Assembly: GCA_018920245.1 (NCBI GenBank)
Contig: JAHLMS010000002.1
Span: forward strand, 1 to 58,307
Reading direction: 5' to 3'
Origin: Candidatus Aenigmatarchaeota archaeon
GTDB taxonomy: Archaea; Aenigmatarchaeota; Aenigmatarchaeia; Aenigmatarchaeales; JAHLMS01
DNA: 58,307 bases
In this document: positions 3,643 through 58,307 of the stretch, piece by piece
Numbering within the stretch: the first letter of the stretch is position 1
How the letters are laid out: every line of letters starts with the position of its first letter
The notes under the pieces: model-generated
Seen by the model: only the letters and a program-made list of their open reading frames with translations
What the model was told of the DNA's origin: nothing
Database searches by the model: none
Position numbers and translations under genes: made by a program

Positions 3643-4077
3643 ATGAGAGGAGTATCAGCCGTGATTGCGGTAATCCTTATACTGATGATTACCGTTGCAC
3701 TGGCAGCGACCAGCTACGTATGGTTCAGTTCAGTGTTCAGCACCGTAACAGCAGGCGGCACCAACGCTACGACGACAGCGATCTCAGGAATCCAAACAGC
3801 ATTCGCCGTAGAGGCTGCGATATATGCTGGAAACAGCTTGACAACAGTCTCCATAAGAAACACCGGTTCCGTGAACATAGACAAGTCGACTGCTGCAGCA
3901 TATATCAATGAGATACCGGCAACCATAACACCAACCCCAAGCGGGACCCTCGCTCCTGGTGCCGTGTTCCAGATATCTGTCCAGAACACGTCAGCTATGG
4001 GAAACATCTGCGGAAAGCCGATCAAAGTATCGTTCGCTGCGGGAACGCCACAGGTGCACGCTATAGGCGGTTGCTGA
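3643..4077 (+). CDS. archaeal type IV pilin-like protein (class III signal peptide)
   Basis: The N-terminus MRG|VSAVIAVILILMITVALAATSYVWF matches the archaeal pilin/archaellin N-terminal domain pattern: a basic residue and Gly, then a hydrophobic helix. Confidence 0.75.
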   Translation: MRGVSAVIAVILILMITVALAATSYVWFSSVFSTVTAGGTNATTTAISGIQTAFAVEAAIYAGNSLTTVSIRNTGSVNIDKSTAAAYINEIPATITPTPSGTLAPGAVFQISVQNTSAMGNICGKPIKVSFAAGTPQVHAIGGC

Positions 4078-4102
4078 AGGCTTTTGTTTTTTATAAAGGC
4101 CT

Positions 4103-4654
4103 GTGCTAGATTTAGCTATGGAAAAGTCCGCTCTACGGGGCCAGGCCCAAATAATTGTTTTTGTGCTACTCTTGCTGATATCACTGATACTCGTTTTCAC
4201 TGCAGTCAGCTGGGGTGGTGGCATCAGTCAGCAGAACATAGATGTCAGTAGAGTGATAGCGGCTGAGAACTGGATGAAGGAACTCGACAGATCGATACAA
4301 TCAGTTGTAAAATCCGGAGGCAGTGCGCGTCTGAATTATCCGTTCAACACGCCGATAGGCCTAGCGGACGTGGATATCAATGACTATATCGAGATGAGTA
4401 TGCCTGTAAGCATAGACCTTCCAGACTATTGGATAAACATCAGCATTTCCGGCGAGCCCGGGCTGATAAGGGAACGCAAGGATGCTGGAGAACTCAAGTT
4501 ACGGCTAAGCTATCCTTTGCGACCTGGGTTCGCGATTGACCTTTTCACGGACGGCCCACAGATAGCGACACCAAAGGCTGTGCTGATTGAACACAACTCG
4601 ACGTTTCAGAACTCCACCATAACAATAGTCAAAATAAAACTGAGCTTCATATAG
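4103..4654 (+). CDS. pilin-like protein (class III signal peptide)
   Basis: MEKSALRG|QAQIIVFVLLLLISLILVFTAV. The likely true start is the ATG at 4118. Confidence 0.6.
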   Translation: MLDLAMEKSALRGQAQIIVFVLLLLISLILVFTAVSWGGGISQQNIDVSRVIAAENWMKELDRSIQSVVKSGGSARLNYPFNTPIGLADVDINDYIEMSMPVSIDLPDYWINISISGEPGLIRERKDAGELKLRLSYPLRPGFAIDLFTDGPQIATPKAVLIEHNSTFQNSTITIVKIKLSFI

Positions 4655-4685
4655 GTTTTTTATATCAGCTTGGCAATCTGCTCTT

Positions 4686-5105
4686 ATGCGAGGGGAATAC
4701 CTTACTATAGAATATGTGCTGTTTTTTGCGTTCGGGGTCACAATAACTGTTGCCGTGTTCATGACCTTTTCAAGCATCAGTGACACCATTCATGATGCAA
4801 GCCTGGTAGAACAGCTAAAACGTACTGGTGAAGCTATACGGGGCGCAGCGGTGAACGTCGCTGAAACAGCAAAGGCCACAGGAAGCAACATCACTTACAA
4901 TGTCAGCATCCCACAACGTCTGTCCGCCTGCACGTACGCCATCTTTACTTCAGGCAGAGATCTCAACCTCAACTGTACAGATAATTATAAGCTTGGAGCT
5001 GTGCTAGATTTATACGGCCTGCCTATACAGAGCAAGGGCGTTGTGTACAGCAGCAGGGGGTACATTGAGATAAAAGCGAACTCGACAAACGTCATATTGA
5101 GTTGA
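4686..5105 (+). CDS. pilin-like protein
   Basis: MRG|EYLTIEYVLFFAFGVTITVAVFM. This is a prepilin-like N-terminus with Glu at +6. Confidence 0.55.
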   Translation: MRGEYLTIEYVLFFAFGVTITVAVFMTFSSISDTIHDASLVEQLKRTGEAIRGAAVNVAETAKATGSNITYNVSIPQRLSACTYAIFTSGRDLNLNCTDNYKLGAVLDLYGLPIQSKGVVYSSRGYIEIKANSTNVILS

Positions 5106-30634: not shown

Positions 30635-31387
30635 TCAACGTACGATTTGCGCTCGAGCCCATGCACGCTCAAAATCTGCAACGCGCTCGCTTGGCGAGTT
30701 GAGCCACATCGTACCCTTGCCTTCTCCATCAATTGTCAGGCCGTGCCGTCCATCAGAAATTATCATGTTCGGCCAGTAACGGCCAAGTCGTATTTCCAGC
30801 CCAGCCCTCTCAAGCTTCTCTAAATGTCTCGCATCGATGTGTGCGGCAACAATACGAACACGCACATTGCGCTCCAGCGCACGCTTGATAGCATCAAGCA
30901 ACACGAAATCTTCAAAAAATTTCTCAGTCGCAATAAAGAGTTCCTCTCTTGCAATATCTATAATAAATGCAGCACGTTCGACAAAGTCTGCATTGTATTG
31001 CTCCCTGACGCACTCCCCAGACCATATGTCCGATATCGGTAAAAAACGCTCATAGGTCTGAGCGAGCCTAGCAAACAATTCTTTCTTACGCAAATAGTCC
31101 CTGCCGACATAACTGAACAATCGAGGGAAAGGATTTGCAGAACGAGACAGCCAGAACACCTTCTGCTTCTCCTTGCTACTCTCAACAACACCCTTCAGCT
31201 GTAAAGAATAAAGGTATTTGTAGGCATTCGTCACGGATATACCTGCCTCCTTGGCGATTGTAGCTGCATCGGCTTTCGGCTTCTTGCGCTGTGTGAGTGT
31301 CAGGAGCGCGCGCACGATCTTTATCTCAAGCTCGTCAAAGCTGTCGGTCTCGCGGAGCATGTTACAGAACTCATCAAGGCCGGGCAT
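30635..31387 (-). CDS. TrmB-family transcriptional regulator with a PLD-like C-terminal domain
   Basis: The N-terminal wHTH is IAKEAGISVTNAYKYLYSLQLKGVVE. The C-terminal domain pattern is that of TrmB-like regulators. Confidence 0.7.
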   Translation of the reverse strand: MPGLDEFCNMLRETDSFDELEIKIVRALLTLTQRKKPKADAATIAKEAGISVTNAYKYLYSLQLKGVVESSKEKQKVFWLSRSANPFPRLFSYVGRDYLRKKELFARLAQTYERFLPISDIWSGECVREQYNADFVERAAFIIDIAREELFIATEKFFEDFVLLDAIKRALERNVRVRIVAAHIDARHLEKLERAGLEIRLGRYWPNMIISDGRHGLTIDGEGKGTMWLNSPSERVADFERAWARAQIVR

Positions 31388-31426: not shown

Positions 31427-31783
31427 TTACTTATAATCCTCTATGAACTTCAGTTTTTTGTTTGGATTCCCTAAAGGACAAGCATATTCATCAAGTCTCG
31501 GCATGTAGCCATCACACCATCTGTAAAAGCATTCACGTGATCCGCATTCATCTGAAATTCCATAGAAGTTTTTACTTTTGTCACCATTGCCTTCAGCGGA
31601 TTTTGTGACCTTCAAGATACCGTGCTTGCGATACCACAAGCACAACGAGGCCTTGATACTTCTGGGATTATCTAAACCTAAAATATTGCAATACGCTTCT
31701 GTAGTCCTCAGCTCATTTTTATGCTGCTTCATGTATTCTATAATTCTTGATATGTCTTTTTCTCGATTCATAGTATACACCAT
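31427..31783 (-). CDS. hypothetical protein: wHTH-like N-terminus and Cys-rich C-terminus
   Basis: 118 aa with C-terminal Cys residues (ECGSRECFYRWCDGYMPRLDEYACP). No family recognised. Confidence 0.4.
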   Translation of the reverse strand: MVYTMNREKDISRIIEYMKQHKNELRTTEAYCNILGLDNPRSIKASLCLWYRKHGILKVTKSAEGNGDKSKNFYGISDECGSRECFYRWCDGYMPRLDEYACPLGNPNKKLKFIEDYK

Positions 31784-31833: not shown

Positions 31834-32451
31834 ATGCAAACAGGAGATTTCATCCGGTTGGCTTATTCAGGAAAGATAAAGGGAACTGATCAGTTATTCG
31901 ACCAAGCCGATTCGGCGCCTGTAATAGTTGGAGCAGGCTATATTTTACCCAGCCTGGATGCAAAGTTGGCTGACATGATGGTTGGCCAGAAAAAGACGGT
32001 AGAGCTGACACCTGAAGAGGCGTTCGGACCGCGAGACCCAAAACTAGTGAGGGTTGTTCCTGAGGCTGAATTCAAAAGGCATGGCACAAAACCTGTACCT
32101 GGTATGCCAATCGAGGCTGACAACATGCGTGGACGTGTGATATCCGTTGCCAGCGGGCGTGTGACTGTAGATTTCAACCATCCACTTGCAGGAAAAGTAC
32201 TTACATTTGACCTTGAAATAAAAAAGAAAATAGAACTGCTTGATGAAAAGATCAAAGCGATAGCAGAGTTCTACAGCAGGATGCCTATGGACAAGCTGAA
32301 CGTACATGTGAAAGGCACCGAGGTTGAGCTCGAAATACCTCCGACGGTGCATGCGATCTACAAAAAGAAGATTGCAGACGACATAATGAAGTGGCTGGAC
32401 CTGACAAAGGTGAAATTTGTAGAAGTTTTTGAAAAGCCCAAAGAGAAGTAG
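31834..32451 (+). CDS. FKBP-type peptidyl-prolyl cis-trans isomerase (SlyD-like with IF insert)
   Basis: GDFIRLAYSGK..., GAGYILPSLDAKLADMMVGQKK, and VTVDFNHPLAGKVLTFDLEI. Confidence 0.85.
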   Translation: MQTGDFIRLAYSGKIKGTDQLFDQADSAPVIVGAGYILPSLDAKLADMMVGQKKTVELTPEEAFGPRDPKLVRVVPEAEFKRHGTKPVPGMPIEADNMRGRVISVASGRVTVDFNHPLAGKVLTFDLEIKKKIELLDEKIKAIAEFYSRMPMDKLNVHVKGTEVELEIPPTVHAIYKKKIADDIMKWLDLTKVKFVEVFEKPKEK

Positions 32452-52307: not shown

Positions 52308-52664
52308 TTACTTACTCCTCGTTAGCTTGAGCTCCTTCTCACTTGGTACTTCCTTGATATTGTTGCTTATCCTGCTGAATTTCCTGCGCAGACCCTCGAA
52401 GTCGTGAGCGATCTCTTCGCCATCCGAGGTCAGTTTTATAATCTTTACCCTACCCTTTTTATCGAACGTGACTAAACCGAGCCGCTTGAATAGATCCAAG
52501 ACCTTCACGGTGTGAGAATAAGTGCAGTCAACCGCCTTGGAGACCTGTGTGGCGTAGCGAACGCTGTCTGAACGCAGCACTAAAAGCATCTTTACGGGTT
52601 TTGAGTGCAAAAACAGGTTGTCGAATGCGTTCTTTATAGCCTCTCTCTGCTTCATAACTCTCAC
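52308..52664 (-). CDS. winged-helix transcriptional regulator (ArsR/MarR-like)
   Basis: VKMLLVLRSDSVRYATQVSKAVDCTYSHTVKVLDLFKRLGLVTFDKKGRVKIIKLT is a typical wHTH plus wing. Confidence 0.6.
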   Translation of the reverse strand: MRVMKQREAIKNAFDNLFLHSKPVKMLLVLRSDSVRYATQVSKAVDCTYSHTVKVLDLFKRLGLVTFDKKGRVKIIKLTSDGEEIAHDFEGLRRKFSRISNNIKEVPSEKELKLTRSK

Positions 52665-52915
52665 ATTTCTAAGAGAAATTTACCTAAACTATTATTTAAA
52701 CCTATCCTAGCCGTTGTATAATATATTTTTTGTTGTGTGTCTTATAAAATATATTGTTTATAATATAATTTATACTAAATTGTTTATGTTACATGTTACA
52801 ATTAATAACTTTTATAATCTATATTTTATAAATTATATTATAATAAAGACGTTTTAAAACCCTCACAAACCCAGACTTCACAAAACAATTTAAGCCCGAG
52901 GACGTAAGTGATATC

Positions 52916-53125
52916 ATGGATATGCCATTATCTCCGGTGGAACGCATACTAAAAAGGTCTTCTATGCGTGTGAGCGACGACGCTGTTAAGGAATTTGCCA
53001 GCCTACTTGAAGAAATAGCCGCTGACATCGCGGCAGAAGCTGCTGCAAACGCGAAAAGGGCCAATCGGAAGACGGTGAACGTGTCGGATATAGAAGCGGC
53101 GAAGCGAAAACTGCTACAATTGTGA
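52916..53125 (+). CDS. archaeal histone (HMf family)
   Basis: 69 aa. The histone fold is PLSPVERILKRSSMRVSDDAVKEFASLLEEIAADIAAEAAANAKRANRKTVNVSDIEAA. Confidence 0.88.
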   Translation: MDMPLSPVERILKRSSMRVSDDAVKEFASLLEEIAADIAAEAAANAKRANRKTVNVSDIEAAKRKLLQL

Positions 53126-53220: not shown

Positions 53221-54249
53221 GTGATTTGTGTGGAGGCTGACGCTATTTTGCAAAAAATAATTGCAACTACTGGAATGTCCAACGAGGATCTGGAGCACCG
53301 CATAGCAGAAAAGCAACGTGAACTCTCCGGACTCGTGAGCAGGGAAGGCGCGGCCTACATAATCGCGAAGGAACTGGGCTTGGAGCTGTTCGAGAAGACA
53401 AAGCGCAGACTTGAAATAAAATCTATAGTGCCGGGCCTGAAAAACGTCACGCTCACAGCCAGGCTCTTACGAATATTCGAAGCGCGCCAATTTGAACGCA
53501 ATGGTCAGAAATCGTCTGTGGCGAACATAATTTTAGGTGATGAGACTGGAATTGTGAGACTTTCCCTTTGGGACCAACAGCTCGAGCTATTAAAGCAGCT
53601 GCAGCCTGGGTTGGCTGTGGAGATCTTTGGCGCATACACAAAGGATGACGGTCGTGGCGGCACAGAAATAAGGCTTAGCAAACGCGGTGGGATAAAGGTC
53701 TTGGCTCAGAGCGACCTACCAACTATAGACAAAATTAAGGCTGTAACAACTGAGACGCCACATAGGGTGGAACTTTCAAGTGTCAAAGAGGGCGGTTTGT
53801 TCGAGGTTCGCGCAGCCGTTGTACAGCTTTTTGACAGCAATGCGTTCTACGAGATCTGTCCAAAGTGCTCGGCGCGGGTGAGGAAGGAAACTGTCGCGGA
53901 AGGACCTAGGCAATATATGGTCTTCAAATGTATCCAGCACGGTGAGGTCCAGCCCACACAGGCGATTGTGCTCTCAGGTGTAATAGACGACGGAACAGCA
54001 AACATTCGCGCAGTCTGGTTCAGGGACGCGGCACTTGAATTGATTGGAATGCCACTCGAGGTTGCTATACAAAAGAAGGACCATCTCCTGGAAAGTATAG
54101 ATGTGCTTGGTAAGGAGTTCATAATGACAGGTCGCGTAAAGCGGAACAAGATGTTTGATCGCCTTGAGTTTATAGTTAACAGCGTCAAGCCTGTGGAACT
54201 GAAAAAAGAATCTGAGGCGCTGATAAACGAATTGAAGCGTGGCTCCTGA
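53221..54249 (+). CDS. replication protein A (ssDNA-binding, OB folds plus zinc ribbon)
   Basis: The OB-fold pattern is [43 protein letters not shown]. The zinc motif is CPKCSARV...CIQH. GTG start. Confidence 0.8.
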
Positions 54250-54289
54250 CAAGCATAAATATTTTGCGGTCAATTGTATAGTGACTTAT

Positions 54290-55261
54290 ATGGCTGAAAA
54301 AGAAAAAATTAAATCTGTCGCTGACCTACCTGGCGTCGGCGAGCGCATTGCGGAGAAACTGAACGATGCAGGTTATACTGATTTGATGGCCATTGCGGCA
54401 GCAAGTCCGAGCGAGCTGGCAGAAGCAGCTGAGCTAGGCGAGGCGACGGCTGCAAAGATAATTTCTGCTGCACGAGATGCATTAGACATGGGCTTTGAAA
54501 CAGCAACGAAGGTGCTTGAGAAGCGCTCGAGAATTGGACATATAACTACTGGGAGTAAGAACCTTGATAACCTTCTTGGTGGAAAAGGTATAGAAACCGG
54601 AGCGACAACAGAGTTTCATGGCGCATTCGGTTCGTCCAAGACTCAGGTAGCACACCAGCTGGCCGTCAATGTGCAACTGCCAATCGAAAGGGGCGGCCTT
54701 GAAGGCGCATGCCTGTATATTGATACCGAAGCAACATTCAGGCCAGAGCGAATAAAGCAAATGGCCGAAGCGCTTAAGCTGGACCCGAAAAAGGTCATGG
54801 AAAACATCTTCGTTGCGAGGGCGTACAATTCCGATCATCAGATGCTACTTGCAGAAAAAGCCTCGGAACTGGTGAAGAGCAAGAACGTCAAGCTTGTCAT
54901 TGTAGATTCTGTTACGGCACTTTTCCGTTCTGATTTCACCGGTAGGGGTGAGCTCGCATCAAGGCAACAGAAACTGAATCGACACCTTCATACATTGCAG
55001 AGGTTGGCAGACATATATAACATTGCCGTCTATGTCACTAACCAGGTCATGGCAAGGCCTGATATTTTATATGGCGATCCGACGGCACCGATAGGCGGCC
55101 ATATAATGGGTCATTTTTCAACTTATCGCGTATATGTGAGAAAATCAAAGGGTGACACACGAATAGGTAGAATGATAGACAGCCCGAACCTGCCAGAAGG
55201 TGAATGTGTATTCTGCATCAAGCCGGAAGGTGTGCGTGACCCGGAAGAGAAAGAAAAATAA
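54290..55261 (+). CDS. radA: DNA repair and recombination protein RadA
   Basis: The HhH is [12 protein letters not shown]. Walker A is GAFGSSKTQ and Walker B is LVIVDS. The ATG at 54290 is preceded by ataaatatttt 25-35 nt upstream. The track's GTG start is at 54239. Confidence 0.95.
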
Positions 55262-56312: not shown

Positions 56313-57392
56313 TTATGCTTTCACGAAAAGCGTTCTCACTTTTGGCGTCAGCGCGTACATAAAGGCCTTACCCTTAGACTCGCGCTGGACATAGCCTTCT
56401 AACATCAACCTGTGAAGAATGTTGTTTATCGATCGAATGGCATGGCCTTTGGAAGCATAGGAACCGCTAATCTGCTCGGCCAGGGCAGTTGGTGTAAGCC
56501 AATCAGTCTTTGCAAGTATTTCCAGGAGCTGCCTCTGCTTGCGGGGCAGGTTGGCTACCTGTAATTCTGACGGTGGTTTAGGTGCGAATGCTACTACAGG
56601 CTCCTCAAGCACAGGCGCTGGCTCAAATTCACGGTAATCAGCCAAGTTCTGTGCATCGATGACATTCTGGCCTTTCTCTATGGCATCATGTACGAGCTTA
56701 TCGGCCAGCTTGAGCACTTCGCGCGGAAAACCTCCCGTGCGTTGGTAAATCGCGGCGATCGCTGCATCTGTAAAAGGGGTCGTTCCAGAGCCACCTACTG
56801 CCTCTATACGCTTTCTCAGAAGATCTTTAGTCTCACTTTCCGAAAGCGCAGTCAGAGCAACCCTAGTTGTTATTCGCTGTTCAAAGGTCTCTAGGCTTGA
56901 TTTTATATTGGACTCTAAAGATGGTAAACCGGCAATTATCAGGCTGACGCTATCTATCTGGTCCACGAGCACGCGTAGCCATTCCAGCACATCTCGACTT
57001 GTTTCATGAGCCTCGTCTATAAGGAAAAGAAGGTGGGTACCCTTTAGCTTCTTGTTTATGTAGGTTGGCAATGTCCAGAGGGTCGGTGTTTTTCCAAAAA
57101 GCCTATCAAAAAAGCTTAGTCCGAAAATATCTGTGAAAATCTGGACGAATTCCTCTGGCTTGAGGGGAGGTTTGCTTATATAGAGCTTAGCTATGTTCGG
57201 GTTGTTCATTTCCAGCCATTTAAGTAATGTTGTCTTACCGCTGCCTGTGTTGCCGGTTACAAGGGCTATCTTGTGTTTATTCTCAATATGGCGGTTGATA
57301 GCCGAGACCTGTTCATCGTACCCTGTGAAGAGATTCGGCTCTATCTTTAATGTGAAAGGGTCCTCTTTCCATCCCCATTTTTCGATTCCCAT
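56313..57392 (-). CDS. divergent Orc1/Cdc6-like AAA+ ATPase with a C-terminal winged helix (candidate replication initiator)
   Basis: Walker A is VTGNTGSGKTTL and Walker B is LLFLIDEAHE. A sensor-like SLIIAG is present, as are the lid segments LSESETKDLLRKRIEA and GGFPREVLKL. The C-terminal wHTH is LTPTALAEQISG...NNILHRLMLEGYVQRE. The repeat array lies immediately upstream. Confidence 0.6.
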   Translation of the reverse strand: MGIEKWGWKEDPFTLKIEPNLFTGYDEQVSAINRHIENKHKIALVTGNTGSGKTTLLKWLEMNNPNIAKLYISKPPLKPEEFVQIFTDIFGLSFFDRLFGKTPTLWTLPTYINKKLKGTHLLFLIDEAHETSRDVLEWLRVLVDQIDSVSLIIAGLPSLESNIKSSLETFEQRITTRVALTALSESETKDLLRKRIEAVGGSGTTPFTDAAIAAIYQRTGGFPREVLKLADKLVHDAIEKGQNVIDAQNLADYREFEPAPVLEEPVVAFAPKPPSELQVANLPRKQRQLLEILAKTDWLTPTALAEQISGSYASKGHAIRSINNILHRLMLEGYVQRESKGKAFMYALTPKVRTLFVKA

Positions 57393-57394
57393 GA

Positions 57395-57865
57395 CATCAC
57401 ATGAACGTTCACTTTGCCTTCACAAGCACGTTCATATTCACGTGAACAAGTATTTAAGCTTTGTGAAGTTCACGTGAACATTATGTGAAGTTTAAAGTAT
57501 ATTTTTAAGGATATAAATGAACATTTCGTGAAGATGAGATGAACTTTCGGCATTTGTGAGAGTTGGAACAGAGAAAAACAAAGAAAATTGTATTACTTGT
57601 GCGGGTTTTTCAAATACCAAAAGTGTGTAAATTCATATGTTCACGCGATTGCGTGAACAAAACGTGAACATTTTTGTGAATATTCACGTTCACTTTATCT
57701 TCACGTTATGTTCACGTGAAGATGCGTGAAGTTCACGTGAACATATGTTCAATTGTTAATACAAAGTGGGACATAAGTGCGATGTTCACGTAATGTTCAC
57801 GTGAACATTACGTGAACATTTTCTAGCCACGTGAAGTTTTCGTGAACAAAAACGTGAACATTTTA
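57395..57865. other. putative chromosomal replication origin (ORB-like repeat clusters flanking an AT-rich spacer)
   Basis: Exact GTGAAC/GTTCAC hexamers start at 57407, 57442, 57468, 57474, 57639, 57653, 57664, 57688, 57710, 57731, 57737, 57784, 57795, 57801, 57812, 57842 and 57854. The 12-bp palindrome GTTCACGTGAAC occurs at 57468, 57731 and 57795. An AT-rich stretch spans about 57481-57635. Confidence 0.65.
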
Positions 57866-57958
57866 ACCTAAAACAAGCATGAAAAAGGCTCTCAATAATT
57901 ATTTATAACACTGTTATAATTTAAAATCTTTAAATAAAACCTACCACCAAAATAAACC

Positions 57959-58307
57959 ATGCGCACATTTATAGCCATCGAAATCCCGGCTGAACTTAAA
58001 CAGAAAATAGTTGCCATTCAGAAAAAGATAGCTGAAACTGGAGCAGACATAAAACTTGTTGAACCTGAGAACCTCCATTACAATCTTAAATTTCTAGGCG
58101 AAATAGATCAGAAGACTGCTGAAAAGGTCAAGAATGCCCTGTCAAATGTATCCTTTCCGGCGTTTGATATTCATATATCTTGTTTAGGAACCTTTCCTAG
58201 CCTCAGTCACATCCGTGTTGTCTGGCTAGGTGTCAAGGAAGGTAGCCAACAGCTTGCTGCTTTGGCAGCTACTATTGAAGAGGCTTTAGCAGGTATAGGC
58301 ATAGCAC
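57959..58307 (+). CDS. thpR: RNA 2',3'-cyclic phosphodiesterase (ThpR/LigT, 2H family); the C-terminus runs off the window
   Basis: My own translation gives MRTFIAIEIPAELKQKIVAIQKKIAETGADIKLVEPENLHYNLKFLGEID...FPSLSHIRVVWLGV, which is open to the end of the window. The first 2H motif is HYNL rather than HxT/Sx. Confidence 0.7.
   Translation, partial: MRTFIAIEIPAELKQKIVAIQKKIAETGADIKLVEPENLHYNLKFLGEIDQKTAEKVKNALSNVSFPAFDIHISCLGTFPSLSHIRVVWLGVKEGSQQLAALAATIEEALAGIGIA

Follow-up and report, generated by a model that had tools for sequence, protein, structure and literature searches.

The 58,307-nt stretch of DNA analysed here (the window) is positions 1-58,307 of contig JAHLMS010000002.1 of a Candidatus Aenigmatarchaeota archaeon (assembly GCA_018920245.1). 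Close to its end, at 57401-57859, it carries a dense array of short GTGAA boxes directly upstream of a minus-strand gene (56313-57392) encoding a 359-residue protein, which was assigned from profile matches and a structure model to the AAA_22 (ExeA/MuB-like) AAA+ ATPases, with a winged helix at its C-terminus, and is presumed to bind the boxes. The array is non-random and helically phased, and its linkage to the gene extends across the phylum. We lean towards the interpretation that the array is the cognate nucleoprotein platform of the AAA_22-winged-helix ATPase, with autoregulation, and not a canonical chromosomal origin. The original prediction, made from the sequence of the window, had described a typical archaeal oriC beside an Orc1/Cdc6-like gene; this description did not hold, as relatives were found to possess a separate canonical orc1 gene with origin recognition boxes (ORBs).

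The GTGAA box array and its conservation

Counting of the boxes gave 17 exact copies of GTGAAC/GTTCAC at 57407-57859 compared with 27 over the rest of the window (57.8 kb), a background from which about 0.22 would be expected per 471 bp. When one mismatch was allowed, 33 boxes were obtained at 57401-57859 (17 exact and 16 with one mismatch), spaced mostly by 11, 6 and 5 nt. The density far above chance that had been claimed for this region was thus borne out, as were the two clusters with a gap, the three perfect dyads and the start of the array just upstream of a start codon: the first box begins 9 nt from the start codon of the AAA_22 gene (57392), and the perfect 12-bp dyad GTTCACGTGAAC starts at 57468, 57731 and 57795.

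The anatomy of the array was studied in an alignment of the window with its two closest relatives, the loci L001 (86% protein identity) and L004 (81%). The promoter-proximal cluster (57401-57490), which overlaps the AAA_22 promoter and 5′ leader, holds ten boxes, among them the dyad at 57468-57479 and a near-dyad at 57436-57447. Each of its alignment columns is conserved in both relatives, and L003 and L207 show an analogous layout. Within this cluster a TATA-like element, CTTAAATAC on the gene strand (minus), was read at 57450-57458, 58-66 nt upstream of the ATG. It is invariant in L001 and L004, TTTAAATA stands at the equivalent place in L003, and it would be expected to act as the promoter. 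Four to five boxes lie between this element and the ATG in the window, L001, L003 and L004.

Further from the gene, three degenerate plus-strand boxes (ATGAAC, GTGAAG and ATGAAC, at 11-nt spacing) occupy 57517-57544 and are followed by a box-free spacer (57545-57638, 31.9% GC), conserved in neither sequence nor composition apart from the element AACTCTCACAA at 57554-57564 (minus-strand reading), which is kept in L001 and L004. The distal cluster (57639-57859) contains 20 boxes, the other two dyads (57731-57742 and 57795-57806) and a 38-bp perfect palindrome at 57782-57819, and it is interrupted at 57750-57762 by a second non-box element, GTATTAACAATTG (also written caattgttaatac), likewise kept in both relatives. 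These two non-box elements may be sites for another factor. The one in the spacer was seen in L003 too and, in the form of CTCACA-rich k-mers, in distant loci.

The gap between the clusters had been proposed to serve as an AT-rich unwinding element; its AT-richness was confirmed in the window but not in the closest relatives. In the window, 57481-57635 has a GC content of 29.7% against a mean of 48% and ranks among the lowest 0.7% of 155-bp windows; AT content is highest in a conserved 35-bp segment at 57486-57520 (17% GC) and, beyond the array, in the promoter region of a divergent LigT-family gene (57866-57958, 24.7% GC). However, the centre of the spacer (70-90 bp) is divergent in L001 and L004, where its GC content, estimated by eye from the alignment, is roughly 50-55%. 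Since the spacer is not AT-rich in these relatives, the proposed unwinding element is not a conserved feature. The most AT-rich stretch of the window as a whole is 52690-52850 (about 15% GC), which is flanked by CTCACA/CTTCACA-type motifs and lies between a minus-strand winged-helix gene (52308-52664) and the histone-RPA-RadA genes. It was considered as an alternative unwinding element and dropped, since its counterpart in L003 is only about 35 bp long and no ORBs are present.

Two further observations concern the motif in the window. A lone dyad-like site with two mismatches, ATTCACGTGATC, was found at 31531-31542, intergenic between 30635-31387 (minus strand) and 31834-32451 (plus strand); sites of this grade are within chance expectation (1.9 per window). 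The array was also considered as an RNA gene, which was rejected, as the Rfam search of the region returned only sub-threshold miRNA-type matches caused by the palindromes.

The pairing of gene and array was found across Aenigmatarchaeota. Close homologues of the protein, about 360 aa long, number 787; almost all of them come from this phylum, and those that carry a name are all 'AAA family ATPase [Ca. Aenigmatarchaeota]'. A locus scan with one genome per GTDB species gave 113 matches; the 80 loci retained come nearly all from metagenome-assembled genomes of Aenigmatarchaeota, with 40-81% protein identity, and the gene-plus-array pair covers about 78 species loci at 38-86% identity. Long Aenigmatarchaeota contigs with the locus include CAVSBQ010000002.1 (1.1 Mb), Ga0480576_000008 (727 kb), DATDSO010000004.1 (621 kb) and ERZ27247683 k141_524924 (443 kb). 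For about 75 of the 78 usable loci, the highest density of GTGAA/TTCAC within ±10 kb is reached in a cluster that starts 200-1300 bp upstream of the orthologue and holds 8-38 boxes where 1-3 would be expected. Each examined locus has a single array, and the 58-kb window has no other. A count of the 12-mer had been suggested as a check: within the window the 12-mer is confined to the array, with zero further copies, and in the relatives the dyad TTCACGTGAA is 189-fold denser in the arrays than in 1.18 Mb of flanking sequence.

Dyads outside the arrays are rare. One clade (six loci) has them at about -1.9 kb, inside OB-fold coding sequence (checked in L049), where they look like a coding coincidence; a wider regulon was rejected on these grounds. 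In a metagenome scan for TTCACGTGAA-N(0-30)-TTCACGTGAA, the matches listed were mostly unrelated contigs, with one locus carrying a weak AAA homologue. One contig, L022 (JBHIEE010000119.1), is labelled 'Candidatus Aminicenantia bacterium'; its match statistics and relative motif positions are identical to those of the Aenigmatarchaeota contig L021 from the same study, and it is probably mis-binned.

Pooling of 1739 boxes revealed a strict helical arrangement. Same-strand spacings peaked at 11 (n = 378), 21-22, 30-33 and 41-43, spacings from TTCAC to GTGAA at 5, 16, 26-27 and 35-37, and spacings from GTGAA to TTCAC at 6, 17 and 28. These peaks have a period of about 10.6 bp, which places all boxes on one face of the helix. 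The extended box consensus is T-T-Y-A-Y-GTGAA-S-W-T. The size of the element varies, and in L205 it is reduced to about seven boxes in a 100-bp divergent intergenic region, the scale of an operator.

The AAA_22-winged-helix protein

The gene next to the array had been taken as Orc1/Cdc6-like, which agrees with its predicted fold but not with its sequence. The 359-residue protein scored above the Pfam cutoff for AAA_22 (8.4e-16, 58.9 bits vs. a cutoff of 27). It also matched TIGR03015 (ExeA-like PEP-CTERM ATPase) at 7.6e-30, and because the score of 104 bits is below the curated cutoff of 324.5, it is not an equivalog of that ATPase. MuB of phage Mu (8xvb, 6e-7) was the only significant sequence match in the PDB, and the PHROG family phrog_296, 'DNA transposition protein', was matched at 2.4e-23. 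The Orc1/Cdc6-specific profiles of Pfam and NCBIfam (Cdc6_lid, Cdc6_C and TIGR02928) gave no match, whereas an Aenigmatarchaeota Orc1 (L040, 3723-4919) matched Cdc6_C at 2e-30 in the same test; hhalign of the protein with the Orc of H. volcanii pHV4 returned a probability of 12% over 48 columns. Among representative proteins, 14,010 matched at E<1e-3, mostly over residues 4-250 only, and the distant full-length relatives combine AAA_22 with a winged helix of the Penicillinase_R/TrmB type.

The AlphaFold2 model (mean pLDDT 85.8) consists of an AAA+ base, a lid, a disordered stretch at about 256-270 and a C-terminal winged helix, which is the three-domain architecture of Orc1/Cdc6; the flexible linker comprises residues 250-283 or so. 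In Foldseek, the top entries were archaeal Orc1/Cdc6 and eukaryotic ORC1/Cdc6 structures aligned at full length (1w5t, 2qby_A/B, 2v1u, 1w5s, 7jgr and 5zr1; 377-445 aligned columns; E 2e-12 to 3e-10). RuvB, RFC and MuB followed close behind, and since RuvB, RFC and NLR proteins were only about 100-fold worse, the resemblance to Orc speaks for a likeness in looks and way of working rather than for family membership. Taking profiles and model together, the protein is best described as initiator-like in its predicted architecture and of the ExeA/MuB group by sequence.

Indirect evidence that this protein reads the boxes came from covariation. The recognition helix of the winged helix, (H/N)A(I/V)RS(I/V)NN(I/L)L, is nearly invariant among orthologues, and both this helix and the GTGAA core stay so across 38% to 100% protein identity. 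Where the first residue of the helix is changed from H317 to N (orthologues in L037-L080), box base -1 is relaxed: the pyrimidine fraction at this position is 0.92 with H317 and 0.70 with N317 (Mann-Whitney p = 2e-8).

An anti-phage defence system or mobile element was considered for this locus and rejected. PADLOC gave matches at the level of the P-loop only (E 7.5e-5 or weaker), no homologue of the protein was found among IMG/VR viral contigs, and the chromosomal synteny is stable in 81 loci. An exact-sequence look-up of the window protein gave no record, and the literature searched on Aenigmarchaeota, Cdc6, Orc1 and origins held no account of the AAA_22-winged-helix protein, its motif or the 12-mer. 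As far as that literature goes, this AAA+/winged-helix ATPase of Aenigmatarchaeota is previously undescribed.

Separate orc1/ORB origins in relatives and the neighbourhood of the array

The loci were searched by tblastn with the H. volcanii Orc, and a canonical Orc1/Cdc6 gene was found in L040 at 3723-4919 (Cdc6_C 2e-30, Cdc6_lid 8e-25). It is the first gene of an orc1-DP1-PolB operon, and about 4.5 kb separate its start codon from the closer edge of the GTGAA array. Many of its homologues are named 'ORC1-type DNA replication protein [Ca. Aenigmarchaeota]', and canonical orc1 is, judging from these sequences, widespread in Aenigmatarchaeota. The idea that the AAA_22 protein replaces an Orc1/Cdc6 absent from the phylum was rejected on this basis. 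The Aenigmatarchaeota replisome has been described as unusual, without DP2 and with a pairing of PolB and DP1 (PMC12680538), which the orc1-DP1-PolB operons seen here match.

Five orc1 loci were examined: L040 (20-5136), L205 (9822-15143), L206 (9741-15181), L207 (9803-11691) and L208 (9676-15800). The gene heads an orc1-DP1-like-PolB operon, or orc1-GINS in L207. In all five, ORB-like dyads of the form TTTCY-N3-RGAAA followed by a G-string, GGGG(T), stand upstream of orc1 (for example TTTCTAAAGGAAATTAGGGGGT, TTTCCTTAGGAAATGAAGGGGTC, TTTCTATACGAAAACAGGGGGT and TTTCCACCTGAAATCATGGGGT), and GTGAA boxes are not enriched there. In L205 and L206 these dyads are inverted around a stretch of 22-29% GC centred on the palindrome ATAAC-N3-GTTAT. 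Exact copies of this palindrome occupy the AT-rich centre of four of the five orc1-upstream regions (L040 5065-5077, L205 9882-9894, L206 9839-9851 and L208 9762-9774), and the L207 copy has one mismatch.

The two kinds of element can be told apart within single loci, and in L207, L205 and L040 they are neighbours. In L207 the array and the ORB origin are distinct and 2.7 kb apart, each beside its own AAA+-winged-helix gene. The AAA_22 gene is 1.8-4.5 kb from orc1 in L207, L205 and L040, and the distance from array to orc1 exceeds 10 kb in most lineages. No orc1 was found in the 58-kb window or within 10 kb in the closest relatives, and no TTTCC-N3-GGAAA-like site was found in or near the array, the only two one-mismatch matches of the window being at 758 and 52093. 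This places the canonical origin of the organism beyond the 58 kb. A separate locus with ORBs and orc1 had been named in the original prediction as an outcome that would speak against it; such loci were found in relatives, not in the window organism.

Strand composition and gene orientation were analysed in the window and in the 80 loci. GC skew of the window simply follows gene strand. With forks taken to leave the array, four-fold-site GC skew was -0.027 for co-oriented and -0.023 for head-on genes, and gene orientation was unbiased, with 47-51% of genes co-oriented within ±10 kb; in the window itself, 77% of coding bp point towards the array, that is, head-on to such forks. No switch of skew or orientation was seen at the array in either data set, a negative that carries little weight and is uninformative rather than refuting, as it rests on stretches shorter than a whole replicon and canonical origins were not run as a positive control.

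The array stands in a conserved island of genes for replication and recombination. In the window, histone (52916-53125), RPA (53221-54249) and RadA (54239-55261) genes were confirmed by NCBIfam and Pfam within 4.5 kb, as had been predicted, and DnaG-like Toprim and RNR genes are also nearby. On the far side of the array a divergent plus-strand gene of the LigT/2′,5′-RNA-ligase family (57959-58307; Pfam LigT_PEase 1.7e-17) runs off the end of the window; a LigT gene holds this place in 68 of 81 loci. The synteny core reads LigT, membrane-anchored OB-fold protein, small winged-helix protein, array, AAA_22, AK-like, PRC, RadA and RPA, with histone in some cases.

The gene for a conserved winged-helix protein of about 104 aa adjoins the array in 53 of the 81 loci and is absent from the clade of the window; in L007-L083 it lies about 0.85-1.4 kb upstream of the AAA_22 gene (e.g. 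9047-9361 in L081), and its product is a candidate for a second DNA-binding component of the locus. In L029 and L030 the LigT/OB-fold/small winged-helix group stands about 6 kb from the AAA_22 gene and retains a mini-array of its own with 8-10 boxes (3384-3534 in L029, about 986-1500 in L030), while the AAA_22 gene has a second box set upstream of it. In the window the palindrome ATAACACTGTTAT (ATAAC-N3-GTTAT) stands at 57905-57917, with the array on one side and the LigT promoter on the other; palindrome and LigT promoter are both conserved in the L001/L004 alignment. Of 75 loci, 21 have this palindrome at the array's distal edge, compared with a background frequency of 0.07 per 1.6 kb. The winged-helix protein of about 104 aa is one candidate for the factor that binds it.

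Possible functions of the array

The module described above is a pair of repeat array and DNA-binding protein, of the iteron or centromere type, in which an ExeA/MuB-type AAA+ fusion protein is the driver. In the platform interpretation towards which we lean, each box would be read by one C-terminal winged helix, and boxes placed head-to-head (the TTCAC|GTGAA dyads) and head-to-tail every ~10.6 bp would bring 20-35 protomers onto one face of the helix. The ExeA/MuB-type AAA+ modules, held on a flexible linker of about 30 residues, would then oligomerise in an ATP-dependent manner into a filament or wrapped nucleoprotein complex. As the promoter-proximal cluster spans the putative TATA box to the ATG, such a complex would repress its own synthesis, and it would probably also control the divergent LigT-side promoter. 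The boxes between the TATA-like element and the ATG point to autoregulation, and the shrunken element of L205 together with the boxes kept beside the LigT/OB-fold pair in L029 and L030 fits an operator that includes the divergent LigT-side promoter.

MuB, TnsC and TniB are the closest sequence relatives of the ATPase module (8xvb and phrog_296 above), with Foldseek target-normalised TM-scores of 0.67-0.72 over the AAA+ part, and they form ATP-dependent helical oligomers on DNA. However, MuB and TnsC are partners of a transposase and have no sequence specificity in their DNA binding, whereas the present protein has a putative sequence-specific winged helix and a dedicated array of sites, with no transposase and with stable chromosomal synteny. 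Sulfolobus Orc1-2, an AAA+/winged-helix Orc paralogue, acts as a sequence-specific transcription regulator and offers a further parallel for the proposed regulatory role, although no sequence relationship to it was seen and both the box sequence and the array architecture differ here.

Several points weigh against the platform interpretation. The 20-38 sites over about 500 bp far exceed the needs of simple autoregulation, and regulation alone can thus not be the whole function; the large distal array probably has a role in origin-proximal chromosome biology, for instance in the control of replication or in segregation. Binding of the boxes, oligomerisation and autoregulation are themselves inferences. 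Origin initiators are the best fold matches and the locus lies in a replication and recombination island, often near orc1, both of which would fit a replication role equally well. The organism's own orc1/ORB locus was not seen in the 58 kb, nor within 10 kb in its closest relatives, and the skew and orientation negative adds little for the reason given above.

A second, non-canonical origin, at which the AAA_22-winged-helix protein would act as initiator by binding the iteron-like boxes, melting AT-rich DNA and recruiting MCM, is in our judgement an unlikely explanation, though the strongest of the alternatives. It would account for the AAA+/lid/winged-helix architecture and the Orc1/Cdc6 fold matches, for the large two-cluster array with its AT-rich stretch in the window, for the phylum-wide layout of an initiator-like gene beside repeats, for the replication genes nearby and for the presence of the palindrome of canonical origin centres at the array edge. 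The Sulfolobus origins are each specified by a neighbouring initiator gene (Orc1-1, Orc1-3 or WhiP), and at oriC3 the adjacent WhiP is a non-Orc1 winged-helix protein; again, no sequence relationship to the present protein was seen, and box sequence and array architecture are different. The overlap of the boxes with the promoter of their own gene also recalls plasmid Rep proteins and their iterons, as in pPS10, F and R6K, where phased direct and inverted repeats cover the promoter of an adjacent initiator gene. Such iterons are typically 17-22 bp long, present in 3-7 copies at two-turn spacing and bound by a non-ATPase winged-helix Rep, whereas the element described here is chromosomal, with synteny fixed phylum-wide, an AAA+ fusion as its putative binder and no sign of a mobile element. 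A homologue on viral contigs would have hinted at a captured mobile replicon, and none was found. What counts further against a second origin is that an orc1/ORB origin lies only 1.8-4.5 kb away in L207, L205 and L040, which would be odd for genomes of about 1 Mb, that the spacer is neither AT-rich nor conserved in L001 and L004, that the L205 array has shrunk to about seven boxes, that skew and orientation gave no signal, and that the AAA+ module is of ExeA/MuB type by sequence, with a 12% hhalign probability against a canonical Orc.

Somewhat more doubtful still is a centromere-like or chromosome-organising site, where the phased repeats would nucleate an AAA+-driven complex near the origin, with a role in segregation, anchoring or compaction analogous to parC/ParR or to origin-proximal parS/ParB, and autoregulation would be a by-product. 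Type II plasmid centromeres (for example R1 parC, both centromere and operator) have as their hallmark at least ten short repeats, phased at one helical turn and arranged in two groups that flank the binder's promoter. The array has many short repeats at ~11-bp phasing overlapping the promoter of its presumed binder's gene, occurs singly at each locus, lies close to the canonical origin in three lineages, and the presumed binder contains an NTPase. The plasmid system divides the work between ParR, a small ribbon-helix-helix protein, and a separate actin-like protein, ParM, whereas DNA-binding domain and NTPase are joined here in one polypeptide. No gene of ParA, ParM, TubZ or SegA type adjoins the array, either in the window or in the core of conserved synteny, where the AAA+ module of the presumed binder is the only NTPase; the only MinD/ParA-like gene of the window is 31 kb away. 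In most lineages orc1 is more than 10 kb distant, and we know of no AAA+-based partition system.

The original idea of a primary oriC bound by canonical Orc1/Cdc6 through a diverged ORB is largely contradicted and appears very improbable: the TTCAC|GTGAA dyad loosely resembles the TTCCA-N-TGGAA core of ORBs, replication genes are nearby, and mini-ORBs are numerous at some archaeal origins (e.g. in Methanothermobacter), but the adjacent gene is not Orc1/Cdc6, relatives have G-string ORBs directly upstream of orc1 without GTGAA enrichment there, the box sequence varies in step with the AAA_22 protein's winged helix, and neither an ORB-like dyad in the array region nor a skew or orientation switch was seen. 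The likeness to an archaeal oriC is real in that dyad-containing boxes lie upstream of a gene for an AAA+/C-terminal winged-helix protein, overlap its promoter and have replication genes for neighbours, with a fold closest to Orc1/Cdc6. It ends where the protein proves to be an ExeA/MuB-type AAA_22 ATPase without Cdc6_lid and Cdc6_C, the boxes are 7-8 bp long, in 20-38 copies with strict ~10.6 bp phasing and without a G-string, the AT-rich element is not conserved, and relatives have a separate ORB/orc1 origin.

DPANN archaea are uncultivated or barely cultivated, and the control and partition of their tiny chromosomes are almost unstudied. The locus described here is a conserved, phylum-wide and probably single-copy protein-DNA system with a clear recognition code that is simple to synthesise (YGTGAA with ~10.6 bp phasing), and the ORB/orc1 origins of Aenigmatarchaeota are described along with it for five lineages. 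A rule that takes a repeat array beside an AAA+/winged-helix gene as the sign of oriC would give false calls in Aenigmatarchaeota. As a tentative thought, to which we give a low probability, the array may be a second initiation or replication-control site besides orc1/ORB, on whose GTGAA iterons a non-Orc MuB/ExeA-type protein polymerises, or the first AAA+-based archaeal centromere. If the array were an origin or a centromere, a MuB/ExeA-type AAA+ ATPase would have been recruited to sequence-specific chromosome biology, and if it were a second origin, the pair would represent a new class of cellular initiator and origin.

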